Positions 1 to 27,330 of a DNA stretch of 64,000 bases are shown here, in pieces. Below the pieces are notes generated by a model. It saw only the letters and a program-made list of their open reading frames with translations, was not told the DNA's origin and did no database searches. Numbering within the stretch: position 1 is the stretch's first letter; every line of letters starts with the position of its first letter. The position numbers and the translations under genes are program-made. Source of the stretch: Schmidtea polychroa (Eukaryota); contig CM097885.1 in NCBI GenBank assembly GCA_044892525.1, forward strand, positions 9,116,001 to 9,180,000, given 5' to 3'.

Positions 1-1
1 C

Positions 2-202
2 TTGATTGATTTTCTTGCACGTCAAGCTTACCCTAATAACCGTAATTTTCTTATCAAAGCATTTCAAGTTGCTACGAAAATACCGCATGGATATATATTT
101 CTCGATTTCACACAACAATGTCCTGATGATATACGGATAAAAACAGATATTTTCAACCCAAAAGGTGCCATGGTTTATAAACAAAGTTCAAAACAAATTT
201 GA
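2..202 (+). pseudogene. Polinton packaging ATPase (FtsK/A32-like), C-terminal part
   Basis: LARQAYP...PHGYIFLDFTQQCPDDIRIKTDIF; the mirror copy extends upstream to GVTVIFITQNLFHQGG. Confidence 0.85.
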
Positions 203-369
203 AAACATATAAATCATGTTTTCAAAAACAAGGATATCAGGTTAAAAACAACTAAAAGTTCCACCAACAACTAGTTATACTCCATCTAAAGAACTTATTA
301 CAGAAAATATTTCTGCAATGAATCTTATTTCGAAAAATCCTAAACCTCTAACCTAAAAGTAAAACAAGT

Positions 370-693
370 AAGAAAGTAAAAGTTGTTAAAAATCATCGGA
401 GTTTCCCGTTTTTTAATACATTGTTAAAGGCACCAAGTATGAAAAGAAACAGTATTTTGCAATCATTTCCAAATTATATTGTCGATATTATACTTAAAGT
501 AGTCAAAGGCAAGATTAAAATCAGTAAATCTAAAAAGCAATTACTGAGTAAAGAAAACCTTTGTTATCATTAGTAAATAATAAAAATCGTCAACAAATGA
601 GAAAAATTATATATAAACAACAAGGGAAATTTATCGGTGCATTGATACCTTTAGCAATATCATTATTAGGTGGAATAATAGGAAGTCGATCAT
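370..693 (+). pseudogene. Small basic Polinton ORF remnant with C-terminal QxGxF-amphipathic segment
   Basis: Hand translation across frameshifts gives ...LLKAPSMKRNSILQSFP...KQQGKFIGALIPLAISLLGGIIGS; lies between ATPase and integrase. Confidence 0.45.
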
Positions 694-756
694 AAACAAT
701 GAGTGCTAATCCTTCATTACCCGACATTAAATTTAATATTAAATCTTCTTGTTGTA

Positions 757-1148
757 ATGGATAAGATTTGGACGAACCCCGAAGACGAAGCCGGTTTTGG
801 TGGAGTCGCAAAAATAAAGAAAAGAGTTCCGAATTCGAAAAAGGAAACCCAGAAGTTTGAACAGTTTGTACAGTTTGAACAAACCAATGCAGAAACGATT
901 TCCAACAAGAGCATATAAAACATGGAATAAATGATTTATGGCAAATGGATTTGATGGAGATGATACCCTATTCGAAAATTAACATTCGGTATAAATATAT
1001 TTTAACATGTATTGACGTATTCAGTTGGTTTGCTCGAGCAATACCAGTCAAGGTCAAAATCTGCAGATGAAATGTCAAAAGCTGTTAATAATTTATTTAA
1101 AAAGGACATCCTAATAACTTGCAAACGGATTTAGGTAATATTATTAAA

Positions 1149-1225
<77 letters not shown>

Positions 1226-1232
1226 GATTATG

Positions 1233-1273
<41 letters not shown>

Positions 1274-1901
1274 AGGTAAAGAATTCTACAACAGTAAAGT
1301 CAAGCAAATCCTCAATAAATTGAATATAAACCATTACTCGGTACATTATCAATACAAAGCTGCTCATGTTGAAAGATTTAAATGAACATTGAGAGATAGA
1401 TTAAAGAAATTCTTTGTACATCAAGGTAATAAAAAATGGATATTGGTTTTACCAAAAATAATAACCAGTTATAATCATTCATCACATCGAGGACTGAATA
1501 GATTAATGCCGATTGATATCACTTCAAAAACATTCTATTCTACAAAACCTGTAAAAATTACAAAACCTAAATATAAAGTAGGTGACCATGTTAGAATTAG
1601 TAAAATTAGTGCATCACCATTTATTAAACATTTCGATACAAATTAGAATGATGAAGTCTTTGTAATTTCAAAAGTAAATACTAGCCAGAGTCCTGTAATG
1701 ATTGTCATCAAAGACAATGATAATAATATTGTACAAGGAAAATTTTATGAGCAAGAATTACAAGTTATTCCTCCTCCAAAAGTATTTAGAATTCAAAAGA
1801 TATTGAAAACTAAAAAGGTCGGCAAGGATAAACAATACTATGTCAAGTGGCATGGATATCAAAACCCATCATGGATATCAAAAAAGGACCTTGTAAAGTG
1901 A
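757..1901 (+). pseudogene. Polinton retroviral-like (rve) integrase with C-terminal chromodomain, disrupted
   Basis: MDKIWTNPEDEAGFGG, WQMDL, CIDVFS, QTDLG-KEF, AHVERF, YNHSSHR, YKVGDHVRIS, GKFYEQELQ, YYVKWHGY..PSWI; several stops and frameshifts plus an (ATT)n insert. Confidence 0.95.
1139..1273 (+). repeat. (ATT)n microsatellite insert flanked by duplicated AGGTAA
   Basis: aggtaa at 1133-1138 and 1274-1279 around an (ATT)n tract. Confidence 0.95.
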
Positions 1902-2482
1902 ATTTTTATACTATTTTACCAAGCAATAGTTGCCCATTAATTCATCCAGATAATCAAGCCAGCAAATTTATGGTCAATCTCCAGAATCCGATTTCTTTAA
2001 ATAGTGACTGAGAAGTTGCACTGCAAGATTTTACATTCGTGTACAACACATTCCTATTTTATAGTCAATGTAAGATTTATTTCAAAAGATCTCATACTGC
2101 TTCCAGCTCAATTTTCAAAAACTTTGGTGTTACTTCATTGACTTTGTCTAAAATTACTGATTATAGAGAAACATATACTCAAGATTTCGAACGTGATAAT
2201 TACTGTGCTACATATATGCAAAGTATTGTTAGAAATCTGGGTTATTTAGATAAAAATTTGAATTGTGGAATAACTCTTGAAGAATTTAAAATCAAATACC
2301 CATTTTTCACATTTGTTTTAGCCCCCGAGTTTGATTTAAATCAGAGTCAACTACCACAAAACGTCAATTTACGACTGGATATAAAGTTTGCAAAGGCCAT
2401 TACAGAACTGGTACATGTTATTATATATGGAGTATTGGAAAATGAAGTTCAAATTACTGCAAATAGAACCGTGCTAGTATAA
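1898..2482 (+). pseudogene. Deletion fusion of minor capsid (penton/PX) N-terminus to major capsid (PY) C-terminus
   Basis: NFYTILPSNS..HPDNQASKFMVNLQNPISLNSD*EVALQD (penton-type start) runs into GITLEEF..YPFFTFVLAP..LRLDIKFAKA..VIIYGVLENEVQITANRTV (Polinton MCP-type end). Confidence 0.8.
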
Positions 2483-2547
2483 ATGTAAACAGAAATATAG
2501 AAATTTGTCATGGAGTTAGTGTTTTTGATACTGTTTAATTTTATTAC

Positions 2548-2895
2548 AGTAGTTCTGTTCAGGTTAATCGAATTGGAAAACAAATATTAGGAAATGAATT
2601 TTTAGGAGTTTTTCCTATCGATAAAATTGCTTATTTGAGCAATAATCAAGCCGTAATCGTCAATACTCATTCGTATCATCTTGGTGGAGAACATTGGATA
2701 GCTATATGTGTGAAACCTAGTGATATATTCGTATTCGATCCTATGGGTTTCTATTATCCTACTTTGTTGATATCTAAACTGCAAACAATTGGGAAAGCTA
2801 TTGTATATAATAAAACTATGTTTCAAAATCCATTGACTCAAACATGCGGTCAACACTGTTTGGCATGGTTGTTGTATAAAAAATTTGATGCTTAA
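2548..2895 (+). pseudogene. Adenain-like (adenoviral C5 family) cysteine protease
   Basis: FLGVFPID, IVNTH..GEHWIA, FDPMG, QNPLTQTCGQHC: catalytic H-D-Q-C present; no clear start codon. Confidence 0.9.
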
Positions 2896-3072
2896 TAAAT
2901 GTATACTGTATCATTTGTTTTTTATTTGTTGACAAAGATATATAATTAATTTAAAAAATATTATTATTATTTGTTAAATATTATTATTTTATGTTTAAAA
3001 TTATTATGTCATACTATTACATGTTCAGTGCATGCACAGTGCAAAGTAACAAAGCACTGAGTAATAAAGGCA

Positions 3073-5276
3073 TTGTATACATTGCCTAAAAATAAATATT
3101 TAGAATTTACTGATTGGAGTAAAACAGTCACTCCTCCGTTTGTTATTTACACCGACTTTGAGGCTATCTTACCTAAAGACACTCGCTACTTTCAACGTCA
3201 TCTGCTTATTTCTGCTGATATGCTTTTTATTAATAATTTTACCGGCGTAAAAATTAATAACTCGTTCACCGGTTTAGATTGCGTCGATCAATTTCTTACT
3301 GAAATTGAAATGATAGGGAAATATATTGTAACACCTTATTATTATAAACATTATCAAAAGAAAATGATAATTACAGATGAACAACAATTAATGTTTGCAA
3401 ACAGCACATCATGTTATTTGTGCAATAAGCCTTCAGTTAGCCCAGTTAAGGACAATGAATATTTTACCGGTCTATATCTTGGTGCCGCTTGTACGGTTTG
3501 TAATCTGTCAAGGCAAATTAGACATATCCTTCCTGTAGTATTTCATAATTTAAAGGGTTATGATCTGCATCATATCTTGAAATTTGGCCTTTCAAAATAT
3601 CATTCATGGAATATAAGCTGTATTCCTTTAACCAGCGAGAAATTTCTTAGTCTTTTTGCTAGGATTGACTCATTAACCGTTAAATTTATAGACTCTTATC
3701 AATTTGTAAGCGAGTTTTTAAATAATGCTGTCAAAACTTTATCATCTTTACCCTTGACCGAATCAGAATTTCAGGGTACAATAATAACTGCAAAGAGATT
3801 TTTTTCTTATGATGCCACAACTTCATTAGAGGTTTTGCATAACACTCGTCAGTTACCTCCTATTTGGAAAGATGTGACTCCCGCTGAATATGAGACAGCT
3901 CAAAGAATTTGGCTTGAAACTTCATTTACTTCACTTTTTGATTACATGATGGATACCGCTTTGCTTTACATAGATATAAATAATTTATATGGTTGGGCTT
4001 TAAGTCAACCATTACCTTGCAGTGACTTTTAATGGGTTACAGATGATAATTTATTAAATAATATAATTGTTGAGTGCACAACGGTAGATTTAGATCTACT
4101 TGATTATGGTTATACCATAGACGTGGATTTAGAAATACCGACGTCAATTCACGACAAACTGGACGATCTTCCCGTTGCCGCTGAAAAGATGTGTGTACCG
4201 GGTTCGAAAATAGAGAAGATGTTGCTTACACACAGCCCCAAGATGAACTACGTTCTTCATTGGAGGCTTCTGCAAATATTTATTAAATTAGGTGTTAAAA
4301 TATCACAAACTCATAGAGCAATTAAATTTAAACAAGATAAAATTTTCAAAAATTATATTAACACAAATACGGTGTTACGAGCAGCGCCGAGAAATAAACT
4401 TGATAAAAATTTTTATAAATTATTAAACAACAGTCTTTTACGGCAAGACAGTTGAAAATCTTAAAAAAACGTATTAATTTACGTCTGTGTAATTCTTCAC
4501 AGAAATTATTAACATTCTGTTCGAAACCAACTTTTCGAAAATCCACGAAAATAGATGATGACCTGATTTCGGTTTTATTGAGGAAGGATTGTATCTGTTT
4601 GAATAGACCTAGTTACATTGCTCAAACTGTACTAGATTTATCCAAACTCAGGATGTACCAGCAGCAGTATGAACAGTTGCAAAAATATCGCGACGAATTC
4701 AACTGCGAAATTAATATTGTTTCTGCGGACAGAGATTCCTTCTTCTTGGCAATTAAACATTGTAGTCTTGACATTCTTTTACCTGCGATGATTAGAGATC
4801 AATTATTAGATACTTCGAATTTTGACCCAAATCATCCTTTATATAGGAGGAACCTTGATTCTGTCATTGGTAAATTCAAAGACGAGAATAAAGGTTTATT
4901 ATATGAAGATTGGGTATTCTTGAGACCTAAATGTTACAGTTTAATGGGTGATGATGAAAGTATGAAGGCTAAGGGACTAACACATCAGTCGTATCTAGAT
5001 TGTTATTTAAACGATAAAATATACACAGTCCCTCAATTTAGAATAACATCGAAAAATCACCAACTTTTTGGTATTAAAAATAATAAAAGAGCCTTGACAT
5101 GTAGAGATGATAAGCGAAATTGGGTGGATAAAATTCAAAGTTTGGCATATGGCCATTATAGGGGAGGTGACACCGATATATTTATAGATTCAACAGAAGC
5201 TGTCTCAGCAGATGATCCAGATGATTTCCATGATCCAGCAGATGATAATTATTTTGGACATGATTATTTTCGATGA
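3073..5276 (+). pseudogene. polB: Protein-primed B-family DNA polymerase, family A, truncated, internally deleted, frameshifted
   Basis: YTDFE, FHNLKGYD, FIDSY, YIDINNLYG, KLLNNSL, DRDS (decayed DTDS), LRPKCY across ORFs 3073-4032, 4123-4455 and 4452-5276. Confidence 0.95.
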
Positions 5277-5570
5277 TGTGGTTAAATTATTTAATAAATG
5301 TATTGATTTTATTGCCTTGAGTTTTTTAGCAGTACCTTTGTGAACAATTTTTTATACATTATATGTGTGTGTGTGTGTAATAATAATATGTTAAAGTTTT
5401 GCCTTGAATATTTTTTAGCAGTACCTTTGTAAGCAGTACCCATAGGGGGACAGAATATCTTGTCGGATAAACTCAGACTATATATAATAATAATAATATT
5501 GCAAAGTATGTGCAAAGTATATGCAATAATTTTTTTCTGTCGACTTTAGCGTCAAAATAAGTATTTAAAA

Positions 5571-6725
5571 AGTAGGTAGTTAGTGGCTTACGGCAGCAAT
5601 AGGGGGGGGGGGGGGGTAAAAATGTTGGAAACTTTTGATTGCATAACTTTTTCCGTAGACATTTTTTGATTACATAATTGTTGCCGTAATGCCCAATGTT
5701 TTCTGGGATTTTAAATACAAAATTTTTTTTTTTTTTTTTTTTTTTTCAATAAACAAGCCAAGGATAAATATTATTTGGGTGGGTCTCCTTGGTCCTGAGA
5801 ATTTCAATAGAAAAAGGTAGTCTTCAATAAAAAAGCATGGATTTTTCACACTATAGTGAGGGGATCTTCTTGGTCATGAGAATTTCAATAGAAAAGGTGG
5901 TTTACATTAAAAAACGCATAGTAAATTTTTAAAATAAAGCAAATTATGGGTCTAAAATTTAAAAATAAAGTAAATGATGGATCTAAAAATTTAAGTAAAT
6001 CAAGGTTCAGATTTATTTTTGAAATAAAGTAAATTATGGTCTAAATAAGTAAATTATGGGCTAAGATTTTTCAATTAAAGTAAATAATGGTTCTAAAAAA
6101 TTAAATTACAGTAAATTATGGTCCAAATTTTTAAATTAAAGTAAATTATGGTTCTTAAAAATTAAATTAAAGTAAATTATGGTCAAAATTTTTGAATTAC
6201 AGTCCAAAAATTTAAATTAAAGTAAATTATGATCCAAATTTTTAAATTAAAGTAAATAATGGTTCTAAAAAATTAAATTAAAGTAAATAATGGTCCAAAT
6301 ATTTTAAATTACAGTAAATAATGGTTCTAAAAATTAAATTACAGTAAATAATGGTCAAAAATTTTAAAATTAAAGTAAATTATGGTTCTAAAAATTAAAT
6401 TAAAGTTAATTAAGGTCCAAATTTTAAAATTAAATAATCAATGGTAAAAAAAATTTAAATTAAAGTTAAATAAGTAAATTAAAGTAATAATTTTTAAATA
6501 AGTAAATTAAAGTAATGTAATAAGTAAATTAAAGTAAGATTTTTAAATTTATTAACAAAAATAGAAGGTGTTTGAGAATTGAAATTTTTTAATGGAAATT
6601 TTAATGAATTATTTTTTAAGTAATTTTTAATAGAAATTTTTATGAATAATTTTCAATGGTAATTTTTAATGGAAATTTTAATAGAATAATTTTTAAGATA
6701 ATTTTTAATGAAAATTTTTATGAAA
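5571..6725 (+). repeat. Polinton family B terminal inverted repeat (5'-AGTAGGTAG end, G-tract, ~30-bp subterminal tandem array)
   Basis: Homologous to the TSD-flanked ends at 59993/62674 and 42434/59320; array of aaagtaaattatggttctaaaaaattaaatt at ~5930-6560. Confidence 0.9.
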
Positions 6726-6726
6726 T

Positions 6727-6794
<68 letters not shown>

Positions 6795-6981
6795 TAATAT
6801 TAATAATATATCAACCAAATACTATACAACACATAAAAAATTAACTAAACACATAAAAATAACTAGGCACATAACAAAACATATAAACATTAACTAAACA
6901 CATAAAAATGAACTAGACACATAACAAACATAAAAATTTACCAAATAACAAATGTAAAGATATAAAATTTATTCAATAAAA

Positions 6982-9900
6982 TTAGTCCTCATCGGACAAA
7001 ATAACGTCATCGATATCGATGTCATCTTCTCCAAAATCTTCATTTAATTCTTCCTCATCTTCTCCATTTTTCTCCAACATTTTCTGAAACATTTTCTGCA
7101 ACAATTTCTCCAACATTTTCTCCAATATTTAATTCACTTAATCTTACATGCCCATATGCAAGACTAGTATTTTTCCCCACCCAAACCCTTTTGTCATCTT
7201 TGTTAGTTAGTGCTATTTTTGTGTTTTTAATTGTAAAAATTTGATGATTTTTGCTTGTTATTTTAGTCTGAGGAACCGAAAAAATCTGGTTAGTGTTATA
7301 ACAATCCAGGTATGACTGATGTTTTATGTCACTACCTTTCAATGTTACACCTTTAGCCTTTTTTGTTTCCTCATCACCCAACAAACTATAACATTTAGGT
7401 CTAAGAAAAACCCGCTCCTTATATTTAAGACCTTTATTCTCGTCTTTGAACTTTCCAATGACTGAATCAAGGTTCTTACTATATAAGGAATGACAACTAT
7501 TGTAATTGGAAGTATCCAATAAATTATCTCGAACCATTGCAGGTAAAAGAACCTCAAGTTTGCAGTTAATGACTTCGAGGAAAAAAGAATCTGTATCACC
7601 TGCAACGATATTAATTTTACAATTAAACTCATTGCGAAATGATTCCAGATCCTTATATTGCAATTCATACATTCTAAGTTTAGATAGATCAAGTACAGAT
7701 TGACCAATGTAACTCGGTCTATCTAAACATATAGAATCGGAATTCAATAGTGCTGCAATTAAATTATCTGCTATTTTAATAGATTTTTTAAAAGTCGGTT
7801 TTGACGAATATTTAACTAATTTACCGGCAGTTGTACAAAGACGAAGATTCATTCTTCTCTTTAAATTTTCAACTGTTTTGCCGTATAAACTATTATTTAG
7901 CAATTTATAATAATTTTTATCTAAGCTATTTACGCTTTTTGATCTTAATTCGGTATTTGTATCTATATATTTTTTAAAAATTGGTGATTGCTTAAATCTT
8001 ACACCCCTATTTACACGTGTTACTTTAACACCAAGTTCCAAATATAATTTTAATAATCTCCAATGAATAACATAATTAGATTTTGGAAGATGAGTTAATA
8101 ATAATTTTTCAACCTTAGACCCAGCAGGTTTCATTTTTTCAGCAGCTACAGGGAAATCATCCAACTTATCATGAAGCTCAGAAGGAATTACAAGATCAAC
8201 TTCAAGTGTGTATCCATAAGACAAAGATTCAAGATTTAAATTCCTACATTCATCCATTATTTTATCAAATCCATCAAGAACCCAACAAAATTCGCCACAA
8301 GGTAATGATTGACTTAAAGCCCAGCCATAAAGATTATTAATATCTATATATAGTAACTCAGTGTTCTCGTCGGTTTTTACGTAATGCTTATTCACAAAAG
8401 TAAGACCGCCTCTTATTCCACCCTCATAAAAGCTAAACATTTCGTTTTCAGTTATGAGTTCAATTGGTTCATTTAAAGACATTAATGCAGAAGACCAAGA
8501 CATGCCTGGAATTCCGAAATAATTCAATGGTTCCAATCTATTGTGAGCAATGGATTTCAACCGAAACTGATGAAAGAAATCAGCCAAAAGAAAACAATCA
8601 AGTTTTAGGTAGATCATCATATAATCTAATAAAGTTACGCAATTAGTTTCTACCCAAATCTCCTGAGCTTTTTCATACTCAAGCTCAGTGACACCCTCCC
8701 AGATTGGTGGTAATTCATAAGTAGTTTGGAGAATATCTAAAGAAGTGGCGAAATTATAAGGGAAGATTCCTTTTTCACTTACTATGGTGCCAGAAAAAGC
8801 AGAATTAGTAAAAGGCAAAGAATTCAAAGTTTTGACTGCTTTAGCCAAAGAATCATTGACAAATTGATACGAATCAATGAATCTTAGGCTAATTTTACCT
8901 AAATGAGCAATCAAAGATATAAATTTTTCCGTAGTTATTGGGATGCACCCTAAATTCCAATTTTTAAATTTATTTAATCCATATTTAAGTATATGGTGCA
9001 TATCGTATCCCTTCAAGTTGTGAAATACGATAGGCAAAATTTTATTTATTTTCCTATTTACGTTACATGTGCTACAAGCTGCACCCATGTATTTCCCCGT
9101 AAAATGATCGTGATCTCTAACAGGATCGACGATAGATTTCATACAAAGATAACAAACAGATGCACTAACAAATTGACGTTGTTCAATTTTTGTTAATTTC
9201 ATCATAGGTTTCCTACCCATTTTATAATAAAAAGGAAGAACCTTATTTAATGCTATATCCTCTATAGCACTTAAAAAACTCTCGACGCAATCTAAACCTA
9301 TGAACTGCTGATAAGATTTAGATCCGTCAAAGTTATTTACAAGTAAAAGACCAGCAGATATTGGCATGTGTCGTTGGAAATGATCATTATCAGAAGGTAA
9401 AATAGCCTCAAAATCTGCATAAACTACAAAAGGAGGAGTTACTGTTTTCGACCAGTCAGTAAACTGTAATAATTTATTTTGAGGGAAGGTGTAAAGAGTT
9501 GTTCCTAATTGATTACGTTTACATAATATTTCATGTTTTTCTAGCGCGTGTTTATTATTAAACCCATTCAAACACCGATGGCACCATAATGAACGTATGC
9601 GTGTAGGACAACTAGTGTTGATATGACAATTCATTAACTTATTTAAATTACTTATAGCAACGTAATGGAAATTGTTTCCTTTATTTAATAATAGTAAATT
9701 AATTACAGTTCCATTTAAAACTTTGGAACGATGTATAATATCTAAATGTGGGTGTTTTAATACGTAATTATCTATTAATTGTTTGTTATTGTCATAAGAA
9801 AAAACGTTAATTATTAAGCCTGGATTTTTGGCCTCGAATTTTCTAATATCTTTTAATTTCATGGGTAAGTCCAATGGATTATATATTAATTCAGATAAAT

Positions 9901-10760
9901 TATAACTGGATGTCCTATTTCTAGCATAACTACTAACCTCATCATATTTTAAAATAGCTAAAATGCTATATAAAAAACATGAATCATCGGTGTTTTTTAT
10001 ATTAATTAAACAATATTTATTTTTTAGATAAGTAGGTGTTTCAATGAAACTCCTACCACTTAATCTACTTAGCCTACTTATCTTTGTTATGGTGAAGTGA
10101 ATTTCTGTTATTTTTTTTTATGATCCAGCTACTTCCTAACTCTGTGATATTACTTATTTTCTCGTTTAGTTCCCTAATGCCTTCGTCAAAAAATGATGCA
10201 GTTAAAGGCTTTGCATAATTTGAGATATTATTAACCTTTATTTCCCCGTCTTTTTCAAATTCGATTGTTATTCCGAATTGAATTTTGACGGAGCCTAATT
10301 CGTTAATAATATCTCGTAATTTTTTTATTAGTTGTTCAGGAAATATTATTTCTTTTATATTTAAGTCGCTTGTATTTAAGCTTAATATTTGATGGGTACC
10401 TCTTAGATCTTTTTGTATTATTGGAACATTTCCACCTATTTGTATTATATTTAATCCATCCCAAGAGTCAAGGGAAATATTATCTAATCCGACCTGGGAT
10501 TCAACAACCAATCCATCATGGGATTCGACAACCAATCCATCATTGGATTCCACAAAAGGCAATCCGACCTGGGATTCAAAAGAAGAAGTATCTAATTTAA
10601 TTTTTTAATTTTTATTATTTTTTTCTATAGTTGAGGGTCTTTTAAAAACACTATCTTTTTTAAAATTAAACCTATCTAAATGATTTTTATGTTTATTATA
10701 AAAAACGCTATATGTTACGGGGTCACTAGTCTTACATACGGGACATATTTTAAAACACAT
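6982..10760 (-). pseudogene. polB: Protein-primed DNA polymerase B, family B, near intact (939-aa open core 7055..9874)
   Basis: Exo motifs YADFE, FHNLKGYD, YLKLD; Pol motifs YIDINNLYG, KLLNNSLYGK, GDTDS; CxxC..DHDH..CxxCN insert; one in-frame stop and two +1 A-run frameshifts separate the N- and C-termini. Confidence 0.95.
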
Positions 10761-11194
10761 TTTGACGCTAAAGTTGACTTATTTAACATTTTCATAATAA
10801 TTTAATAAAAATAATGTGATGAACCCACAAAGTAATATCATTTTTCATCAAATTGCAAAACAGTAATAACGTTTTCATAAAATTGTAACAAAGTAATAAC
10901 ATATTTCAGATAAATTTTCAACAGTTGTAAAATATTTAAGCAAATTGTAACAAGATTAGAAAATATTACAACAAAGTAGTAACATATTTCAGAAAATTTC
11001 AACAAATTTGTAAAATATTTATCAAATTGTAACTAAAATAATAAAAATATTGCAACAAAGTAATAAAATAATAATGGTAATTAAGACAAATCAATACATT
11101 ATTTCGAAGACGGACAACAAATTAAAAAGAATATTGTAACTAAAATAATAAAAATATTGCAACAAAGTAATAAAATAATACAACATTTTAAACT

Positions 11195-11620
11195 CTAGAT
11201 CAATCCATTTTATAGAAAATTAAATTTTATCTATATAATATATGAATAAATATCCAAGGAAATTACGTTAACGTATAATAAATACAAATTTATCGTAAAA
11301 ACATGTGTGTATTACACACAAAACAAGATACATAATTTCTAATCAATCCATTTTATAGAAAATTAAATTTTATCTATATATTATATGAATAAAATCCTAA
11401 GAAAATTACGTTAACTGTATGAAAAATACAAATTTATCATAAAAACATGTGTGTATTACACACAACATACGAGACATAATTTTTAATCAAGCTATTTTAT
11501 AGAAAATTAAATTTTATCTATATAATATATGAATAAAAATCCAAGAAAATTACGTTAACCGCGCGAAAAACTACAAATTTATTGTAAAAACATGTGTGCA
11601 TTACACACAAAGCATCAAAC
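11195..11620. repeat. Three ~145-bp tandem repeats with internal palindromes (mirror at ~12805-13228)
   Basis: Repeated ttttatagaaaattaaattttatctatata...ttacgttaac...aaaaacatgtgtgtattacacaca. Confidence 0.9.
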
Positions 11621-11730
11621 TGAAATTGTAATTGCGCGATGTTGTAGAGAATTAAATTCTGCCTATACATGGTTACACTTAAATCTCGATCAGACATGTG
11701 AAAAGAGACATAAAAGATAAAAAACAGTAG

Positions 11731-12692: not shown

Positions 12693-13662
12693 CTACTGTT
12701 TTTTATCTTTTATGTCTCTTTTCACATGTCTGATCGAGATTTAAGTGTAACCATGTATAGGCAGAATTTAATTCTCTACAACATGGCGCAATTACAATTT
12801 CAGTTTGATGCTTTGTGTGTAATGCACACATGTTTTTACAATAAATTTGTAGTTTTTCGCGCGGTTAACGTAATTTTCTTGGATTTTTATTCATATATTA
12901 TATAGATAAAATTTAATTTTCTATAAAATAGCTTGATTAAAAATTATGTCTCGTATGTTGTGTGTAATACACACATGTTTTTATGATAAATTTGTATTTT
13001 TCATACAGTTAACGTAATTTTCTTAGGATTTTATTCATATAATATATAGATAAAATTTAATTTTCTATAAAATGGATTGATTAGAAATTATGTATCTTGT
13101 TTTGTGTGTAATACACACATGTTTTTACGATAAATTTGTATTTATTATACGTTAACGTAATTTCCTTGGATATTTATTCATATATTATATAGATAAAATT
13201 TAATTTTCTATAAAATGGATTGATCTAGAGTTTAAAATGTTGTATTATTTTATTACTTTGTTGCAATATTTTTATTATTTTAGTTACAATATTCTTTTTA
13301 ATTTGTTGTCCGTCTTCGAAATAATGTATTGATTTGTCTTAATTACCATTATTATTTTATTACTTTGTTGCAATATTTTTATTATTTTAGTTACAATTTG
13401 ATAAATATTTTACAAATTTGTTGAAATTTTCTGAAATATGTTACTACTTTGTTGTAATATTTTCTAATCTTGTTACAATTTGCTTAAATATTTTACAACT
13501 GTTGAAAATTTATCTGAAATATGTTATTACTTTGTTACAATTTTATGAAAACGTTATTACTGTTTTGCAATTTGATGAAAAATGATATTACTTTGTGGGT
13601 TCATCACATTATTTTTATTAAATTATTATGAAAATGTTAAATAAGTCAACTTTAGCGTCAAA

Positions 13663-16600
13663 ATGTGTTTTAAAATATGTCCCGTATGTAAGACTAGTGA
13701 CCCCGTAACATATAGCGTTTTTTATAATAAACATAAAAATCATTTAGATAGGTTTAATTTTAAAAAAGATAGTGTTTTTAAAAGACCCTCAACTATAGAA
13801 AAAAATAATAAAAATTAAAAAATTAAATTAGATACTTCTTCTTTTGAATCCCAGGTCGGATTGCCTTTTGTGGAATCCAATGATGGATTGGTTGTCGAAT
13901 CCCATGATGGATTGGTTGTTGAATCCCAGGTCGGATTAGATAATATTTCCCTTGACTCTTGGGATGGATTAAATATAATACAAATAGGTGGAAATGTTCC
14001 AATAATACAAAAAGATCTAAGAGGTACCCATCAAATATTAAGCTTAAATACAAGCGACTTAAATATAAAAGAAATAATATTTCCTGAACAACTAATAAAA
14101 AAATTACGAGATATTATTAACGAATTAGGCTCCGTCAAAATTCAATTCGGAATAACAATCGAATTTGAAAAAGACGGGGAAATAAAGGTTAATAATATCT
14201 CAAATTATGCAAAGCCTTTAACTGCATCATTTTTTGACGAAGGCATTAGGGAACTAAACGAGAAAATAAGTAATATCACAGAGTTAGGAAGTAGCTGGAT
14301 CATAAAAAAAAATAACAGAAATTCACTTCACCATAACAAAGATAAGTAGGCTAAGTAGATTAAGTGGTAGGAGTTTCATTGAAACACCTACTTATCTAAA
14401 ACATAAATATTGTTTAATTAATATAAAAAACACCGATGATTCATGTTTTTTATATAGCATTTTAGCTATTTTAAAATATGATGAGGTTAGTAGTTATGCT
14501 AGAAATAGGACATCCAGTTATAATTTATCTGAATTAATATATAATCCATTGGACTTACCCATGAAATTAAAAGATATTAGAAAATTCGAGGCCAAAAATC
14601 CAGGCTTAATAATTAACGTTTTTTCTTATGACAATAACAAACAATTAATAGATAATTACGTATTAAAACACCCACATTTAGATATTATACATCGTTCCAA
14701 AGTTTTAAATGGAACTGTAATTAATTTACTATTATTAAATAAAGGAAACAATTTCCATTACGTTGCTATAAGTAATTTAAATAAGTTAATGAATTGTCAT
14801 ATCAACACTAGTTGTCCTACACGCATACGTTCATTATGGTGCCATCGGTGTTTGAATGGGTTTAATAATAAACACGCGCTAGAAAAACATGAAATATTAT
14901 GTAAACGTAATCAATTAGGAACAACTCTTTACACCTTCCCTCAAAATAAATTATTACAGTTTACTGACTGGTCGAAAACAGTAACTCCTCCTTTTGTAGT
15001 TTATGCAGATTTTGAGGCTATTTTACCTTCTGATAATGATCATTTCCAACGACACATGCCAATATCTGCTGGTCTTTTACTTGTAAATAACTTTGACGGA
15101 TCTAAATCTTATCAGCAGTTCATAGGTTTAGATTGCGTCGAGAGTTTTTTAAGTGCTATAGAGGATATAGCATTAAATAAGGTTCTTCCTTTTTATTATA
15201 AAATGGGTAGGAAACCTATGATGAAATTAACAAAAATTGAACAACGTCAATTTGTTAGTGCATCTGTTTGTTATCTTTGTATGAAATCTATCGTCGATCC
15301 TGTTAGAGATCACGATCATTTTACGGGGAAATACATGGGTGCAGCTTGTAGCACATGTAACGTAAATAGGAAAATAAATAAAATTTTGCCTATCGTATTT
15401 CACAACTTGAAGGGATACGATATGCACCATATACTTAAATATGGATTAAATAAATTTAAAAATTGGAATTTAGGGTGCATCCCAATAACTACGGAAAAAT
15501 TTATATCTTTGATTGCTCATTTAGGTAAAATTAGCCTAAGATTCATTGATTCGTATCAATTTGTCAATGATTCTTTGGCTAAAGCAGTCAAAACTTTGAA
15601 TTCTTTGCCTTTTACTAATTCTGCTTTTTCTGGCACCATAGTAAGTGAAAAAGGAATCTTCCCTTATAATTTCGCCACTTCTTTAGATATTCTCCAAACT
15701 ACTTATGAATTACCACCAATCTGGGAGGGTGTCACTGAGCTTGAGTATGAAAAAGCTCAGGAGATTTGGGTAGAAACTAATTGCGTAACTTTATTAGATT
15801 ATATGATGATCTACCTAAAACTTGATTGTTTTCTTTTGGCTGATTTCTTTCATCAGTTTCGGTTGAAATCCATTGCTCACAATAGATTGGAACCATTGAA
15901 TTATTTCGGAATTCCAGGCATGTCTTGGTCTTCTGCATTAATGTCTTTAAATGAACCAATTGAACTCATAACTGAAAACGAAATGTTTAGCTTTTATGAG
16001 GGTGGAATAAGAGGCGGTCTTACTTTTGTGAATAAGCATTACGTAAAAACCGACGAGAACACTGAGTTACTATATATAGATATTAATAATCTTTATGGCT
16101 GGGCTTTAAGTCAATCATTACCTTGTGGCGAATTTTGTTGGGTTCTTGATGGATTTGATAAAATAATGGATGAATGTAGGAATTTAAATCTTGAATCTTT
16201 GTCTTATGGATACACACTTGAAGTTGATCTTGTAATTCCTTCTGAGCTTCATGATAAGTTGGATGATTTCCCTGTAGCTGCTGAAAAAATGAAACCTGCT
16301 GGGTCTAAGGTTGAAAAATTATTATTAACTCATCTTCCAAAATCTAATTATGTTATTCATTGGAGATTATTAAAATTATATTTGGAACTTGGTGTTAAAG
16401 TAACACGTGTAAATAGGGGTGTAAGATTTAAGCAATCACCAATTTTTAAAAAATATATAGATACAAATACCGAATTAAGATCAAAAAGCGTAAATAGCTT
16501 AGATAAAAATTATTATAAATTGCTAAATAATAGTTTATACGGCAAAACAGTTGAAAATTTAAAGAGAAGAATGAATCTTCGTCTTTGTACAACTGCCGGT

Positions 16601-17441
16601 AAATTAGTTAAATATTCGTCAAAACCGACTTTTAAAAAATCTATTAAAATAGCAGATAATTTAATTGCAGCACTATTGAATTCCGATTCTATATGTTTAG
16701 ATAGACCGAGTTACATTGGTCAATCTGTACTTGATCTATCTAAACTTAGAATGTATGAATTGCAATATAAGGATCTGGAATCATTTCGCAATGAGTTTAA
16801 TTGTAAAATTAATATCGTTGCAGGTGATACAGATTCTTTTTTCCTCGAAGTCATTAACTGCAAACTTGAGGTTCTTTTACCTGCAATGGTTCGAGATAAT
16901 TTATTGGATACTTCCAATTACAATAGTTGTCATTCCTTATATAGTAAGAACCTTGATTCAGTCATTGGAAAGTTCAAAGACGAGAATAAAGGTCTTAAAT
17001 ATAAGGAGCGGGTTTTTCTTAGACCTAAATGTTATAGTTTGTTGGGTGATGAGGAAACAAAAAAGGCTAAAGGTGTAACATTGAAAGGTAGTGACATAAA
17101 ACATCAGTCATACCTGGATTGTTATAACACTAACCAGATTTTTTCGGTTCCTCAGACTAAAATAACAAGCAAAAATCATCAAATTTTTACAATTAAAAAC
17201 ACAAAAATAGCACTAACTAACAAAGATGACAAAAGGGTTTGGGTGGGGAAAAATACTAGTCTTGCATATGGGCATGTAAGATTAAGTGAATTAAATATTG
17301 GAGAAAATGTTGGAGAAATTGTTGCAGAAAATGTTTCAGAAAATGTTGGAGAAAAATGGAGAAGATGAGGAAGAATTAAATGAAGATTTTGGAGAAGATG
17401 ACATCGATATCGATGACGTTATTTTGTCCGATGAGGACTAA
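13663..17441 (+). pseudogene. polB: Protein-primed DNA polymerase B, family B, mirror copy (939-aa open core 14549..17368)
   Basis: Same 939-aa translation as the left copy; ATG at 13663, TAA at 13816, A9 frameshift near 14304-14312, frameshift near 17355 hiding an acidic tail ending at TAA 17441. Confidence 0.95.
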
Positions 17442-17628
17442 TTTTATTGAATAAATTTTATATCTTTACATTTGTTATTTGGTAAATTTTTATGTTTGTT
17501 ATGTGTCTAGTTCATTTTTATGTGTTTAGTTAATGTTTATATGTTTTGTTATGTGCCTAGTTATTTTTATGTGTTTAGTTAATTTTTTATGTGTTGTATA
17601 GTATTTGGTTGATATATTATTAATATTA

Positions 17629-17693
<65 letters not shown>

Positions 17694-17694
17694 A

Positions 17695-18844
17695 TTTCAT
17701 AAAAATTTTCATTAAAAATTATCTTAAAAATTATTCTATTAAAATTTCCATTAAAAATTACCATTGAAAATTATTCATAAAAATTTCTATTAAAAATTAC
17801 TTAAAAAATAATTCATTAAAATTTCCATTAAAAAATTTCAATTCTCAAACACCTTCTATTTTTGTTAATAAATTTAAAAATCTTACTTTAATTTACTTAT
17901 TACATTACTTTAATTTACTTATTTAAAAATTATTACTTTAATTTACTTATTTAACTTTAATTTAAATTTTTTTTACCATTGATTATTTAATTTTAAAATT
18001 TGGACCTTAATTAACTTTAATTTAATTTTTAGAACCATAATTTACTTTAATTTTAAAATTTTTGACCATTATTTACTGTAATTTAATTTTTAGAACCATT
18101 ATTTACTGTAATTTAAAATATTTGGACCATTATTTACTTTAATTTAATTTTTTAGAACCATTATTTACTTTAATTTAAAAATTTGGATCATAATTTACTT
18201 TAATTTAAATTTTTGGACTGTAATTCAAAAATTTTGACCATAATTTACTTTAATTTAATTTTTAAGAACCATAATTTACTTTAATTTAAAAATTTGGACC
18301 ATAATTTACTGTAATTTAATTTTTTAGAACCATTATTTACTTTAATTGAAAAATCTTAGCCCATAATTTACTTATTTAGACCATAATTTACTTTATTTCA
18401 AAAATAAATCTGAACCTTGATTTACTTAAATTTTTAGATCCATCATTTACTTTATTTTTAAATTTTAGACCCATAATTTGCTTTATTTTAAAAATTTACT
18501 ATGCGTTTTTTAATGTAAACCACCTTTTCTATTGAAATTCTCATGACCAAGAAGATCCCCTCACTATAGTGTGAAAAATCCATGCTTTTTTATTGAAGAC
18601 TACCTTTTTCTATTGAAATTCTCAGGACCAAGGAGACCCACCCAAATAATATTTATCCTTGGCTTGTTTATTGAAAAAAAAAAAAAAAAAAAAAAAATTT
18701 TGTATTTAAAATCCCAGAAAACATTGGGCATTACGGCAACAATTATGTAATCAAAAAATGTCTACGGAAAAAGTTATGCAATCAAAAGTTTGCAACATTT
18801 TTACCCCCCCCCCTATTGCTGCCGTAAGCCACTAACTACCTACT
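17695..18844 (-). repeat. Polinton family B TIR, mirror copy
   Basis: Reverse complement of 5571-6725, ends ctaactacctact. Confidence 0.9.
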
Positions 18845-19138
18845 TTTTAAATACTTATTTTGACGCTAAAGTCGACAGAAAAAAATTATTGCATATACTT
18901 TGCACATACTTTGCAATATTATTATTATTATATATAGTCTGAGTTTATCCGACAAGATATTCTGTCCCCCTATGGGTACTGCTTACAAAGGTACTGCTAA
19001 AAAATATTCAAGGCAAAACTTTAACATATTATTATTACACACACACACACATATAATGTATAAAAAATTGTTCACAAAGGTACTGCTAAAAAACTCAAGG
19101 CAATAAAATCAATACATTTATTAAATAATTTAACCACA

Positions 19139-21342
19139 TCATCGAAAATAATCATGTCCAAAATAATTATCATCTGCTGGATCATGGAAATCATCTGGAT
19201 CATCTGCTGAGACAGCTTCTGTTGAATCTATAAATATATCGGTGTCACCTCCCCTATAATGGCCATATGCCAAACTTTGAATTTTATCCACCCAATTTCG
19301 CTTATCATCTCTACATGTCAAGGCTCTTTTATTATTTTTAATACCAAAAAGTTGGTGATTTTTCGATGTTATTCTAAATTGAGGGACTGTGTATATTTTA
19401 TCGTTTAAATAACAATCTAGATACGACTGATGTGTTAGTCCCTTAGCCTTCATACTTTCATCATCACCCATTAAACTGTAACATTTAGGTCTCAAGAATA
19501 CCCAATCTTCATATAATAAACCTTTATTCTCGTCTTTGAATTTACCAATGACAGAATCAAGGTTCCTCCTATATAAAGGATGATTTGGGTCAAAATTCGA
19601 AGTATCTAATAATTGATCTCTAATCATCGCAGGTAAAAGAATGTCAAGACTACAATGTTTAATTGCCAAGAAGAAGGAATCTCTGTCCGCAGAAACAATA
19701 TTAATTTCGCAGTTGAATTCGTCGCGATATTTTTGCAACTGTTCATACTGCTGCTGGTACATCCTGAGTTTGGATAAATCTAGTACAGTTTGAGCAATGT
19801 AACTAGGTCTATTCAAACAGATACAATCCTTCCTCAATAAAACCGAAATCAGGTCATCATCTATTTTCGTGGATTTTCGAAAAGTTGGTTTCGAACAGAA
19901 TGTTAATAATTTCTGTGAAGAATTACACAGACGTAAATTAATACGTTTTTTTAAGATTTTCAACTGTCTTGCCGTAAAAGACTGTTGTTTAATAATTTAT
20001 AAAAATTTTTATCAAGTTTATTTCTCGGCGCTGCTCGTAACACCGTATTTGTGTTAATATAATTTTTGAAAATTTTATCTTGTTTAAATTTAATTGCTCT
20101 ATGAGTTTGTGATATTTTAACACCTAATTTAATAAATATTTGCAGAAGCCTCCAATGAAGAACGTAGTTCATCTTGGGGCTGTGTGTAAGCAACATCTTC
20201 TCTATTTTCGAACCCGGTACACACATCTTTTCAGCGGCAACGGGAAGATCGTCCAGTTTGTCGTGAATTGACGTCGGTATTTCTAAATCCACGTCTATGG
20301 TATAACCATAATCAAGTAGATCTAAATCTACCGTTGTGCACTCAACAATTATATTATTTAATAAATTATCATCTGTAACCCATTAAAAGTCACTGCAAGG
20401 TAATGGTTGACTTAAAGCCCAACCATATAAATTATTTATATCTATGTAAAGCAAAGCGGTATCCATCATGTAATCAAAAAGTGAAGTAAATGAAGTTTCA
20501 AGCCAAATTCTTTGAGCTGTCTCATATTCAGCGGGAGTCACATCTTTCCAAATAGGAGGTAACTGACGAGTGTTATGCAAAACCTCTAATGAAGTTGTGG
20601 CATCATAAGAAAAAAATCTCTTTGCAGTTATTATTGTACCCTGAAATTCTGATTCGGTCAAGGGTAAAGATGATAAAGTTTTGACAGCATTATTTAAAAA
20701 CTCGCTTACAAATTGATAAGAGTCTATAAATTTAACGGTTAATGAGTCAATCCTAGCAAAAAGACTAAGAAATTTCTCGCTGGTTAAAGGAATACAGCTT
20801 ATATTCCATGAATGATATTTTGAAAGGCCAAATTTCAAGATATGATGCAGATCATAACCCTTTAAATTATGAAATACTACAGGAAGGATATGTCTAATTT
20901 GCCTTGACAGATTACAAACCGTACAAGCGGCACCAAGATATAGACCGGTAAAATATTCATTGTCCTTAACTGGGCTAACTGAAGGCTTATTGCACAAATA
21001 ACATGATGTGCTGTTTGCAAACATTAATTGTTGTTCATCTGTAATTATCATTTTCTTTTGATAATGTTTATAATAATAAGGTGTTACAATATATTTCCCT
21101 ATCATTTCAATTTCAGTAAGAAATTGATCGACGCAATCTAAACCGGTGAACGAGTTATTAATTTTTACGCCGGTAAAATTATTAATAAAAAGCATATCAG
21201 CAGAAATAAGCAGATGACGTTGAAAGTAGCGAGTGTCTTTAGGTAAGATAGCCTCAAAGTCGGTGTAAATAACAAACGGAGGAGTGACTGTTTTACTCCA
21301 ATCAGTAAATTCTAAATATTTATTTTTAGGCAATGTATACAA
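19139..21342 (-). pseudogene. polB: pPolB family A remnant, mirror copy
   Basis: ORFs identical to 3073-5276. Confidence 0.95.
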
Positions 21343-21519
21343 TGCCTTTATTACTCAGTGCTTTGTTACTTTGCACTGTGCATGCACTGAACATGTAATA
21401 GTATGACATAATAATTTTAAACATAAAATAATAATATTTAACAAATAATAATAATATTTTTTAAATTAATTATATATCTTTGTCAACAAATAAAAAACAA
21501 ATGATACAGTATACATTTA

Positions 21520-21867
21520 TTAAGCATCAAATTTTTTATACAACAACCATGCCAAACAGTGTTGACCGCATGTTTGAGTCAATGGATTTTGAAACATAGT
21601 TTTATTATATACAATAGCTTTCCCAATTGTTTGCAGTTTAGATATCAACAAAGTAGGATAATAGAAACCCATAGGATCGAATACGAATATATCACTAGGT
21701 TTCACACATATAGCTATCCAATGTTCTCCACCAAGATGATACGAATGAGTATTGACGATTACGGCTTGATTATTGCTCAAATAAGCAATTTTATCGATAG
21801 GAAAAACTCCTAAAAATTCATTTCCTAATATTTGTTTTCCAATTCGATTAACCTGAACAGAACTACT
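21520..21867 (-). pseudogene. Adenain-like cysteine protease, mirror copy
   Basis: Translation identical to 2635-2895. Confidence 0.9.
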
Positions 21868-21932
21868 GTAATAAAATTAAACAGTATCAAAAACACTAAC
21901 TCCATGACAAATTTCTATATTTCTGTTTACAT

Positions 21933-22517
21933 TTATACTAGCACGGTTCTATTTGCAGTAATTTGAACTTCATTTTCCAATACTCCATATATAATAACAT
22001 GTACCAGTTCTGTAATGGCCTTTGCAAACTTTATATCCAGTCGTAAATTGACGTTTTGTGGTAGTTGACTCTGATTTAAATCAAACTCGGGGGCTAAAAC
22101 AAATGTGAAAAATGGGTATTTGATTTTAAATTCTTCAAGAGTTATTCCACAATTCAAATTTTTATCTAAATAACCCAGATTTCTAACAATACTTTGCATA
22201 TATGTAGCACAGTAATTATCACGTTCGAAATCTTGAGTATATGTTTCTCTATAATCAGTAATTTTAGACAAAGTCAATGAAGTAACACCAAAGTTTTTGA
22301 AAATTGAGCTGGAAGCAGTATGAGATCTTTTGAAATAAATCTTACATTGACTATAAAATAGGAATGTGTTGTACACGAATGTAAAATCTTGCAGTGCAAC
22401 TTCTCAGTCACTATTTAAAGAAATCGGATTCTGGAGATTGACCATAAATTTGCTGGCTTGATTATCTGGATGAATTAATGGGCAACTATTGCTTGGTAAA
22501 ATAGTATAAAAATTCAC
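21933..22517 (-). pseudogene. Penton/major capsid deletion fusion, mirror copy
   Basis: Translation identical to 2039-2482. Confidence 0.8.
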
Positions 22518-23141
22518 TTTACAAGGTCCTTTTTTGATATCCATGATGGGTTTTGATATCCATGCCACTTGACATAGTATTGTTTATCCTTGCCGACCTT
22601 TTTAGTTTTCAATATCTTTTGAATTCTAAATACTTTTGGAGGAGGAATAACTTGTAATTCTTGCTCATAAAATTTTCCTTGTACAATATTATTATCATTG
22701 TCTTTGATGACAATCATTACAGGACTCTGGCTAGTATTTACTTTTGAAATTACAAAGACTTCATCATTCTAATTTGTATCGAAATGTTTAATAAATGGTG
22801 ATGCACTAATTTTACTAATTCTAACATGGTCACCTACTTTATATTTAGGTTTTGTAATTTTTACAGGTTTTGTAGAATAGAATGTTTTTGAAGTGATATC
22901 AATCGGCATTAATCTATTCAGTCCTCGATGTGATGAATGATTATAACTGGTTATTATTTTTGGTAAAACCAATATCCATTTTTTATTACCTTGATGTACA
23001 AAGAATTTCTTTAATCTATCTCTCAATGTTCATTTAAATCTTTCAACATGAGCAGCTTTGTATTGATAATGTACCGAGTAATGGTTTATATTCAATTTAT
23101 TGAGGATTTGCTTGACTTTACTGTTGTAGAATTCTTTACCT

Positions 23142-23191
<50 letters not shown>

Positions 23192-23198
23192 CATAATC

Positions 23199-23272
<74 letters not shown>

Positions 23273-23664
23273 TTTAATAATATTACCTAAATCCGTTTGC
23301 AAGTTATTAGGATGTCCTTTTTAAATAAATTATTAACAGCTTTTGACATTTCATCTGCAGATTTTGACCTTGACTGGTATTGCTCGAGCAAACCAACTGA
23401 ATACGTCAATACATGTTAAAATATATTTATACCGAATGTTAATTTTCGAATAGGGTATCATCTCCATCAAATCCATTTGCCATAAATCATTTATTCCATG
23501 TTTTATATGCTCTTGTTGGAAATCGTTTCTGCATTGGTTTGTTCAAACTGTACAAACTGTTCAAACTTCTGGGTTTCCTTTTTCGAATTCGGAACTCTTT
23601 TCTTTATTTTTGCGACTCCACCAAAACCGGCTTCGTCTTCGGGGTTCGTCCAAATCTTATCCAT
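22514..23664 (-). pseudogene. Polinton chromo-integrase remnant, mirror copy
   Basis: Mirror of 757-1901; the (ATT)n insert is 6 nt longer. Confidence 0.95.
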
Positions 23665-24218
23665 TACAACAAGAAGATTTAATATTAAATTTAATGTCGG
23701 GTAATGAAGGATTAGCACTCATTGTTTATGATCGACTTCCTATTATTCCACCTAATAATGATATTGCTAAAGGTATCAATGCACCGATAAATTTCCCTTG
23801 TTGTTTATATATAATTTTTCTCATTTGTTGACGATTTTTATTATTTACTAATGATAACAAAGGTTTTCTTTACTCAGTAATTGCTTTTTAGATTTACTGA
23901 TTTTAATCTTGCCTTTGACTACTTTAAGTATAATATCGACAATATAATTTGGAAATGATTGCAAAATACTGTTTCTTTTCATACTTGGTGCCTTTAACAA
24001 TGTATTAAAAAACGGGAAACTCCGATGATTTTTAACAACTTTTACTTTCTTACTTGTTTTACTTTTAGGTTAGAGGTTTAGGATTTTTCGAAATAAGATT
24101 CATTGCAGAAATATTTTCTGTAATAAGTTCTTTAGATGGAGTATAACTAGTTGTTGGTGGAACTTTTAGTTGTTTTTAACCTGATATCCTTGTTTTTGAA
24201 AACATGATTTATATGTTT

Positions 24219-24480
24219 TCAAATTTGTTTTGAACTTTGTTTATAAACCATGGCACCTTTTGGGTTGAAAATATCTGTTTTTATCCGTATATCATCAGGA
24301 CATTGTTGTGTGAAATCGAGAAATATATATCCATGCGGTATTTTCGTAGCAACTTGAAATGCTTTGATAAGAAAATTACGGTTATTAGGGTAAGCTTGAC
24401 GTGCAAGAAAATCAATCAAGTGTTCGATGTGCACCACCTTGATGAAATAGATTTTGTGTTATGAAAATAACTGTTACACC
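24219..24480 (-). pseudogene. Polinton packaging ATPase remnant
   Basis: GVTVIFITQNLFHQGGAHRT then, after a deletion/frameshift, IDFLARQAYP... Confidence 0.88.
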
Positions 24481-24954
24481 AACACAGGAACTATTATTGA
24501 TTCACTATTTCCCCTATTGTAATTTCATCATAAAACATTTCCAATAAAACTTCACCCATTTAAATATTCAAAAGATTCCACCAGTCCCTCACCAAATATT
24601 TTGACCCATTTAAACATCCAACCGTCTACAGTTTTTACAATAATCAAGTGATTGGATATTTCTCTTAATTTTGATGATGACTTTATAATGATATTGAATT
24701 TTACTAAAGAATTTTTTCAATAATTATATTTTCCAGAGACTGAAACCGAACCCGAACCCGAAACCATCCAATCAACATTGAATATGGTTACAACTGATCC
24801 ACAGCATACTAATGTTGCAATTAGTTTATAATTGGCCAAATGCATCAATAAACTGATTTTTTAAAAATGTTTTTTTAGCAAATATTTCCAAAATAATAAA
24901 ACTGATGAAAAGCCAAAATAAATCAATTTTTATTGAAATGCTTTTTTAAATTTC

Positions 24955-26924: not shown

Positions 26925-27330
26925 GCACTATCTCTACGGAAGAAGATTCACGCTATGGACAGATCACAAGGCGATCACGTTTATGATGACAACCAAAAAG
27001 CCAATTACTTCTCAATTCCAAACCTGGATCAATTATTTGAGCAGTTTGGATATAATCGTTGAAGGGTGTTAATCACCAAAATGCAGACATGGTGTCCAGA
27101 ACTAAATGTGAAACGTGTGTTCAATGTCAAATGGCTCACGAAGAATTTAAGAAAGGAAAGATAAAAACTAGATTACTAGACTCGATCAGAGAAGAAGGTA
27201 GGGGCACCAATCAACAAATAAATTTGGAAGAAGAATTACGAAAGAAAACGATGATACCTGAAAACGAGATACAAGAAACCATAAAGGAAATACATCGACT
27301 ATTGTGTCATGCTGGAGTCGAGAAGATAGA
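26925..27330 (+). mobile_element. Ty3/Gypsy pol fragment (RNase H end to integrase zinc-binding start)
   Basis: TDHKAITFM..FQTWINYLSSLDI, KGVNHQNADMVSR, IKEIHRLLCHAGVEK. Confidence 0.8.

Follow-up and report, generated by a model that had tools for sequence, protein, structure and literature searches.

A near-perfect palindrome of at least 24 kb in Schmidtea polychroa, duplicating two nested Polinton families around a small transposon-like hinge

The stretch of Schmidtea polychroa DNA analysed here (GenBank assembly GCA_044892525.1, contig CM097885.1, positions 9,116,001 to 9,180,000; 64,000 nucleotides, 28% GC and zero N, hereafter the window) opens with a near-perfect palindrome of at least 24 kb. 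Its two arms flank a spacer of 836 bp and both carry the remains of two Polinton families, B lying within A. With moderate confidence, we propose that this palindrome is a recent fold-back inverted duplication, primed on the termini of a small hinge piece (C) and formed in the animal chromosome rather than by transposition, a two-step variant being included in this reading. The observed part consists of the hinge, the spacer, mirrored flanks devoid of target-site duplications (TSDs), lesions shared by the arms and near-identity running through the terminus of family B. The steps of the mechanism are those that the sequence would suggest.

Self-BLAST of the window returned a single inverted match at this locus, 1-11,793 against 24,420-12,630, with 99.763% identity over 11,801 columns (E 0.0). 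From the centre outward, each arm comprises the 68-bp terminus of C, the family B satellites and pPolB, then the end of B, beyond which comes the cassette of family A in a decayed state (Table 1). The identity shows no step at the B terminus (5,571/18,844), the mirror going on into family A, and it reaches base 1, so that the outer limit lies outside the window. The original prediction, made from the letters alone, is borne out in its description: it had announced a near-perfect palindrome of at least 24 kb, its passage across the B terminus into A and an outer limit beyond the window, and the arm differences that it named, namely three substitutions, a G-tract and (ATT)n lengths, are all seen in the alignment.

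With the hinge excluded, the full alignment contains three substitutions in 11,725 bp (left/right positions 5,628/18,792, 10,021/14,402 and 11,638/12,785), plus tract lengths. The G-tract counts 15 in one arm and 10 in the other, the (ATT)n inside the family A integrase has 25+13 against 24+16 units and the (AAT)n 20 against 19, and a 24-T tract is of the same length in both. Ten additional mismatches are clustered in 25 bp (11,748-11,772), within the inverted termini of C. The inter-arm divergence of 2.6e-4 (95% interval 0.5-7.5e-4) corresponds to an arm age of roughly 10^4 generations, if between 3e-9 and 1e-8 mutations are assumed per site and generation. All three substitutions fall in B and the 5,570 bp of A contain 0, a distribution that has P=0.14 under uniformity.

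The arms also have their lesions in common, since both carry the stop and frameshift of the B pPolB as well as the decayed A genes. These shared lesions, together with letters that are rare among aligned sequencing-run contigs, point to the recopying of one copy that was already mutated. This suggests that a single mutated copy, already drifted from its family, was recopied recently, and that the arms have changed separately since. A private change is present in either arm: at 14,402 nearly all the contig depth has the left-arm letter, and at 5,628 the right-arm form is the one present in the other three of the four B termini of the window. These private changes, the difference between G15 and G10 and the slippage that affects each of the two (ATT)n halves argue against one molecule read twice.

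The centre of the palindrome is a transposon-like piece, C, and not random sequence. Its termini are identical at 58 of 68 positions, with 22 identical bp followed by 10 mismatches in 25 bp and then by 21 identical bp, and they can fold into a long stem at the base of the 836-base loop (z = -11; the folded stretch took in 10 mirrored flank bases). An unduplicated spacer is thus bounded by a short inverted homology of 68 bp, and such an arrangement is a fold-back signature matching the human junctions described in PMC3907307. The left flank of C ends in AAAAAC and the right one begins with GTTTTT, a mirror image without TSD. The window contains no second whole copy of C, and the 22-nt C terminus gave 0 matches in metagenome contigs; piece C itself is covered in contigs of all four runs aligned on 11,600-17,280. 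AGTAG-ended, gene-less pieces partly related to C are also present at 38,757-40,052 and at about 62,900-63,639, for which no TSD pair was found.

Table 1. Features of the palindrome and of its neighbourhood (positions in the window)
Feature	Position	Strand	Remarks
Left arm	1-11,793	+	self-BLAST and full alignment; open at base 1
Right arm	12,630-24,420	-	reverse complement of 1-11,793; self-BLAST and full alignment
Decayed family A cassette	1-5,570	+	
A ATPase C-terminus	14-178		
A small conserved open reading frame (ORF) piece	585-680		
A integrase with chromodomain	869-1,865		broken; contains the (ATT)n
A putative minor-capsid N-terminus	1,904-2,038		
A double-jelly-roll-like capsid C-terminus	~2,010-2,480		
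A adenovirus-type protease	~2,540-2,895		
A pPolB	3,040-5,276		N-terminally truncated, three frames; deletion junction with the protease near 2,900-3,040
Family B end	5,571-11,725	+	AGTAGGTAG terminus, G-tract, satellite arrays, pPolB; left flank TTAAAA
B satellite array, 30-bp	6,047-6,471		
B satellite array, 83-bp			
B satellite array, 144-bp	11,194-11,611		
pPolB of family B, left-arm copy	7,055-10,754	-	one residue differs from right copy in open frame
Hinge piece C	11,726-12,697	.	972 bp, gene-less, AGTAG...CTACT ends
Left terminal inverted repeat (TIR) of C	11,726-11,793	+	68 bp
Unduplicated spacer	11,794-12,629	.	836 bp; three copies of ~200-bp unit and 21-bp repeats; related to 39,065-39,605
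Right TIR of C	12,630-12,697	-	68 bp
Mirror copy of family B end	12,698-18,844	-	right flank TTTTAA (mirror, no TSD)
pPolB of family B, right-arm copy	13,669-17,368	+	
Mirror copy of family A cassette	18,845-24,420	-	0 substitutions against 1-5,570
A ATPase continuation beyond visible mirror	24,421-24,800	-	tblastx to 24,477; rest by eye only
TRAF-like host-type gene pieces	24,955-26,070	-	MATH domain 24,955-25,458; coiled-coil piece 25,756-26,070
16.9-kb palindromic element	42,434-59,320	.	ends AG..CT; TATATA left and right; outer flanks unrelated to each other
Family B deletion derivative	59,993-62,674	.	2.7 kb; TATATG TSD; long TIRs (86%)

Polintons end in the letters AG...CT, and the ends of family B read AGTAGG, both at 5,571/18,844 and at 59,993/62,674. 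At 5,571-18,844 no TSD of 5-8 bp is present, the flanks TTAAAA and TTTTAA being mirrored, and no integrase, ATPase, protease or capsid gene was found between these positions, where only pPolB-related frames occur. This copy of family B is predicted to be a non-autonomous Polinton derivative. Its pPolB retains a 1,020-codon open frame (14,306-17,368) with exonuclease and polymerase motifs (PF03175, E 4.8e-31), and the closest relatives are 60% identical. A single stop and a frameshift, located near 14,309, interrupt the N-terminal part alike in both arms; an intron was considered at this place and rejected, the tblastn frames abutting without gap. Over the outermost 1.3 kb of B the arms show 99.3% identity, against 70% and 86% in two control elements of the window. 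This near-identity, together with the mirrored flanks, indicates that one arm was freshly copied from the other, right from left or left from right, and that the right arm is not the original other end of B.

For comparison, 92 related pPolB loci were gathered (80 metagenome, 12 viral), with a best DNA identity to B of 68%; none of them belongs to the species of the window. Inverted repeats of at least 100 bp occur in 8 of the 92, the longest measuring 1,183 bp at 83% identity, in a material where short-read contigs would miss long palindromes. In the Polinton-like locus L088, from the viral collection, a 1.18-kb inverted repeat (83%) joins 2,260-3,424 and 10,852-12,034, away from the left end. 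Another Polinton-like locus, L065, has dUTPase-like and deoxynucleoside-kinase-like ORFs (330-755; 4,845-5,549), named by eye.

The two nested Polinton families first proposed from the sequence are supported by protein evidence. The family A genes, all of them broken, match ORFs of L065 typed as rve, Pox_A32 and Peptidase_C5 (tblastx), and direct Pfam matches were obtained for the protease, PolB and the chromodomain. A capsid-like piece of 156 aa resembles double-jelly-roll clusters with a score of 0.96, although recognition is low; it has no Pfam match and a weak BLAST hit (E 0.001) to the putative major capsid protein of L065. At the DNA level, the pPolB of A and that of B are only 64-68% identical, so that two families are indeed present. 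No AG..CT terminus or TSD for A was found on either side within the window. To the right, the A ATPase lies directly beside TRAF-like pieces, a search with which gave one match; these could be a host gene or captured cargo, and could fall either inside or outside the mirror.

Two neighbouring elements served as controls. In the 16.9-kb palindromic element, the outer arms are ~70-90% alike and the inner arms 99.8%; its TATATA flanks are self-complementary and thus weaker as TSD evidence. In the family B deletion derivative at 59,993-62,674, a pPolB 3' end, 92% identical to that of B, occurs in one arm only, and the TIRs are near 99% identical over 60,430-60,750 and about 88% outside, a patchiness that suggests arm-to-arm conversion. 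Both controls have direct 6-bp flanks, in contrast to the mirror flanks at B and C. The presence next door of palindromes with diverged arms indicates that the palindromic habit is biological in this genome.

Sequencing-run contigs bear on the central part of the palindrome. Seventeen runs matched 7,000-16,000, all as contigs, and four of them, from two studies, were aligned on 11,600-17,280, an interval that does not include the B/A junction. Seven of the 17 were sediment and biofilm runs with small shares, outside the aligned four and uninformative on habitat. All 30 bins were covered in each of the four runs, with 1,630 to 89,109 contigs aligned per run, most of them less than 99% alike; contig depth is not a copy number, and contigs drop rare variants. 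The spacer, the hinge ends and the B pPolB are therefore real multi-copy sequence. Among the 40 differences listed out of 237, position 14,402 has the left-arm letter in nearly all the depth of all four runs (about 600 of 1.13 million differ in run X14, and none in the other three), and at 14,878, 15,007 and 17,009 the letter of both arms is in the minority or absent.

We propose the following sequence of events. A decayed family A Polinton would have received an insertion of family B near its polymerase end, with C sitting inside B. A break at or just to the right of C would then have exposed a single-stranded 3' end, and the right terminus of C could have annealed to the left one, with the 836-bp spacer looped out. 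Synthesis outward over B and then A, for at least 11.7 kb, would have replaced the original right flank of C, and the product would have been healed by a second rearrangement, not in view in this window. The arms would afterwards have acquired the three substitutions and several slippage changes. The same end sequence would result from a two-step variant, in which B was already palindromic and a cut hairpin or cruciform, or an exchange between sister chromatids, extended the mirror into A. Hairpin cleavage and sister exchange are routes taken from yeast work. The location of all three substitutions in B leans to the two-step route, only at the P value given above.

Of the two explanations first offered for the palindrome, the recent fold-back duplication stands at the moderate strength given here, as it fits the imperfect short hinge repeat, the unduplicated spacer, the absence of TSD at B and C and the shared lesions. 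Arm-to-arm conversion alone, the other one, cannot make mirrored flanks where homology never existed, while the neighbouring elements do show patchy homogenisation of their arms. For human inverted duplications, the reported spacers measure 766-70,466 bp, with inverted Alu/L1 pairs as the hinge in 3 of 21 (PMC3907307). Fold-back products are described as normally needing a second rearrangement for stability, and yeast loops as reaching thousands of bases (PMC7467729). Two other origins were rejected: two independent head-to-head insertions of B, by the shared lesions and the same A flank, and a long-TIR element inserted normally, by the mirrored flanks without TSD.

Several points weigh against a fold-back duplication on C. 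The outer breakpoint is not within the window, and no second, stabilising rearrangement is visible in 24,421-64,000. No TSD-flanked copy of C marks it as an independent insertion. The support consists of the assembled sequence and of contigs, and the contigs do not prove the mirror itself: among the 32 listed, out of about 93,900, none spans the junction on one or the other side of the hinge. Finally, the concentration of all the substitutions in B, with none in A, is likewise predicted by the two-step variant and by a misjoin.

A technical origin of the palindrome is, taken as a whole, unlikely. Its first form, a haplotype misjoin, appears rather unlikely. Here a B palindrome of 13.3 kb would be real, with its spacer flipped on the other haplotype or with an ambiguous graph, and the contig would come in by the left flank of one haplotype and go out by that of the other, the arm differences being allelic. 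The A flank, with zero substitutions and only microsatellite differences, and the absence of TSD both agree with such an error, and palindromes are a weak point of assembly graphs according to a source on de Bruijn unitigs (10.1101/2022.01.20.477068). However, the misjoin needs near-homozygous haplotypes at this locus, with a heterozygosity below about 0.1%: for 11,725 bp, the probability of at most three differences is 0.003 at an assumed heterozygosity of 0.1% and 1e-21 at 0.5%. Moreover, the span from spacer to flank is only ~7 kb, and the 16.9-kb neighbour, with its unique flanks, was resolved in this assembly.

It is also conceivable, yet quite improbable, that the locus is a composite snap-back replicon, in which a strand displaced by protein-primed synthesis, begun at an outer Polinton terminus, folded back at C, and the resulting free palindrome, with ends on the A side, was integrated as a unit. 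Snap-back forms occur in phi29, adenovirus mini-chromosomes and Streptomyces linear plasmids. Such genomes are also documented for adeno-associated virus (AAV; PMC8235507), and the window does contain palindromic elements that end in AG..CT between direct flanks of 6 bp. Against this, no right-end AG..CT terminus was found in 24,421-40,051, and B alone has termini at both outer ends. The A ATPase runs into the TRAF-like gene and unrelated repeats, A is heavily decayed, and the unit up to the next terminus would exceed 55 kb, compared with 13-25 kb as given for Polintons in 10.1101/2023.08.22.554363.

An inverted triplication by fork template switching, of the origin-dependent inverted-repeat amplification (ODIRA) type, is very unlikely. 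C would then be one junction, with a second hinge and a third copy carrying the true C flank upstream. This scheme requires no DNA loss, and junctions keeping short inverted repeats are an ODIRA signature (PMC10766186), but the yeast hinges described there are ~5-nt repeats 40-80 nt apart, as against a loop of 836 nt here, and no third copy was found in 24,421-64,000. Least probable of all is a single-molecule artefact, either a chimera of multiple displacement amplification (MDA) or a fold-back read primed at the C termini: whole-genome amplification gives palindromic reads, 40-50% in one test (10.1101/173872), and the C stem would be a strong hinge, but the three substitutions, the 5-base G-tract difference, slippage in three tract segments next to an equal T24, and a derived letter proper to each arm speak against it.

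The fold-back duplication that we favour has known counterparts. Human inverted duplications (Hermetz et al., PMC3907307) and yeast foldback inversions (PMC7467729), as described in these reports, are alike in having an unduplicated spacer, inverted homology at its edges and near-identical arms, and in these systems dispersed repeats can supply the hinge, as here. The present locus differs from them in that a single small transposon-like piece provides the hinge with its two TIRs, nested Polintons make up the copied DNA, the healing junction is not in view, and the duplication is presumably germline and interstitial. Foldback transposons (Drosophila FB, Galileo) are similar to this locus in their very long TIRs of tandem repeats, but have direct TSDs and unique flanks; unlike them, this palindrome has mirrored flanks and Polinton-type ends. 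Snap-back comparisons can further be drawn with the palindromic replicons of phi29 and with adenovirus panhandle repair. The snap-back or copy-back defective genomes reported for AAV, with a terminus and adjacent genes inverted around an asymmetric loop (PMC8235507), fit B (5,571-18,844) well. However, such genomes are described as ending at the viral terminus, whereas the mirror overruns the B terminus by at least 5.57 kb.

With Polinton/Maverick elements, as presented in 10.1101/2023.08.22.554363, the locus shares pPolB, integrase, protease, ATPase, capsid remnants and long satellite-rich TIRs, and the family B derivative at 59,993-62,674 has the 6-bp TSD. It is unlike them in that B is one end plus pPolB, doubled, in that A is decayed, and in that the whole palindrome shows neither TSD nor outer TIR in view. 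For this last reason, B and A can be regarded as Polinton derivatives and the whole palindrome not as a Polinton. Palindromic Polintons, or a mirror passing a Polinton terminus, are not described in the titles and abstract beginnings among the matches listed by literature search.

Further observations concern the surroundings of the palindrome. In the 16.9-kb element, the mismatches between inner arms are clustered (44,793-44,805; 49,196-49,211), the identity falls at 44,232/56,954, inside satellite, and a C14-G13 hairpin stands just within each terminus. Its spacer contains a hAT-like element (50,292-51,127) with GTATATAG on each side and an apparent transposase C-terminal remnant, judged by eye. 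The hinge of this element is a 29-bp tandem repeat, and a TIR element as the hinge of all the palindromes in this stretch was considered and dropped. An older, truncated relative of it occupies 27,349-33,772, with arms only 73-84% alike, and is interrupted by a fragment of a retroelement integrase (27,056-27,394) at its left side and by GC-rich sequence at its right; its motif at 28,262/31,290 represents an internal module, which it has in common with the 16.9-kb element. A hairpin-like motif, GTC(G/T)GATAAACTCAGA followed by a TA run, is common to the family A end and the gene-less palindromes (5,461; 18,954; 28,279; 31,272; 45,995; 49,158; 52,029; 55,191), with a variant near 39,770. On the minus strand, 34,051-34,812 holds a 253-codon ORF in a 42% GC island, without Pfam match and probably part of a retroelement, and on the plus strand, a Tc1/mariner (DDE_3) transposase frame at 40,322-41,158 ends early.

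Fold-back inverted duplication is itself well known; what is new here is a hinge made of a TIR pair and the overrun into the flank. To our knowledge, Polinton replication has never been observed directly, and the 'racket' model of fold-back has been deduced indirectly. A germline duplication whose hinge coincides exactly with Polinton-type termini, beside TSD-bearing palindromic relatives, would provide dated products on which fold-back and strand-displacement models can be tested. We consider it improbable, if attractive, that, in this Polinton-saturated genome, snap-back copying of a Polinton overran its terminus, with small Polinton-type TIR pieces as hinges and the Polinton polymerase or integrase driving a multi-kb inverted duplication of the host chromosome; if this were true, Polintons would be a direct engine of segmental palindromes and the locus a caught intermediate of their replication. 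Were the palindrome a misjoin, it would stand as a warning of false palindromes in Polinton-rich assemblies. If the duplication is real, it would mean that such elements rearrange the host chromosome.

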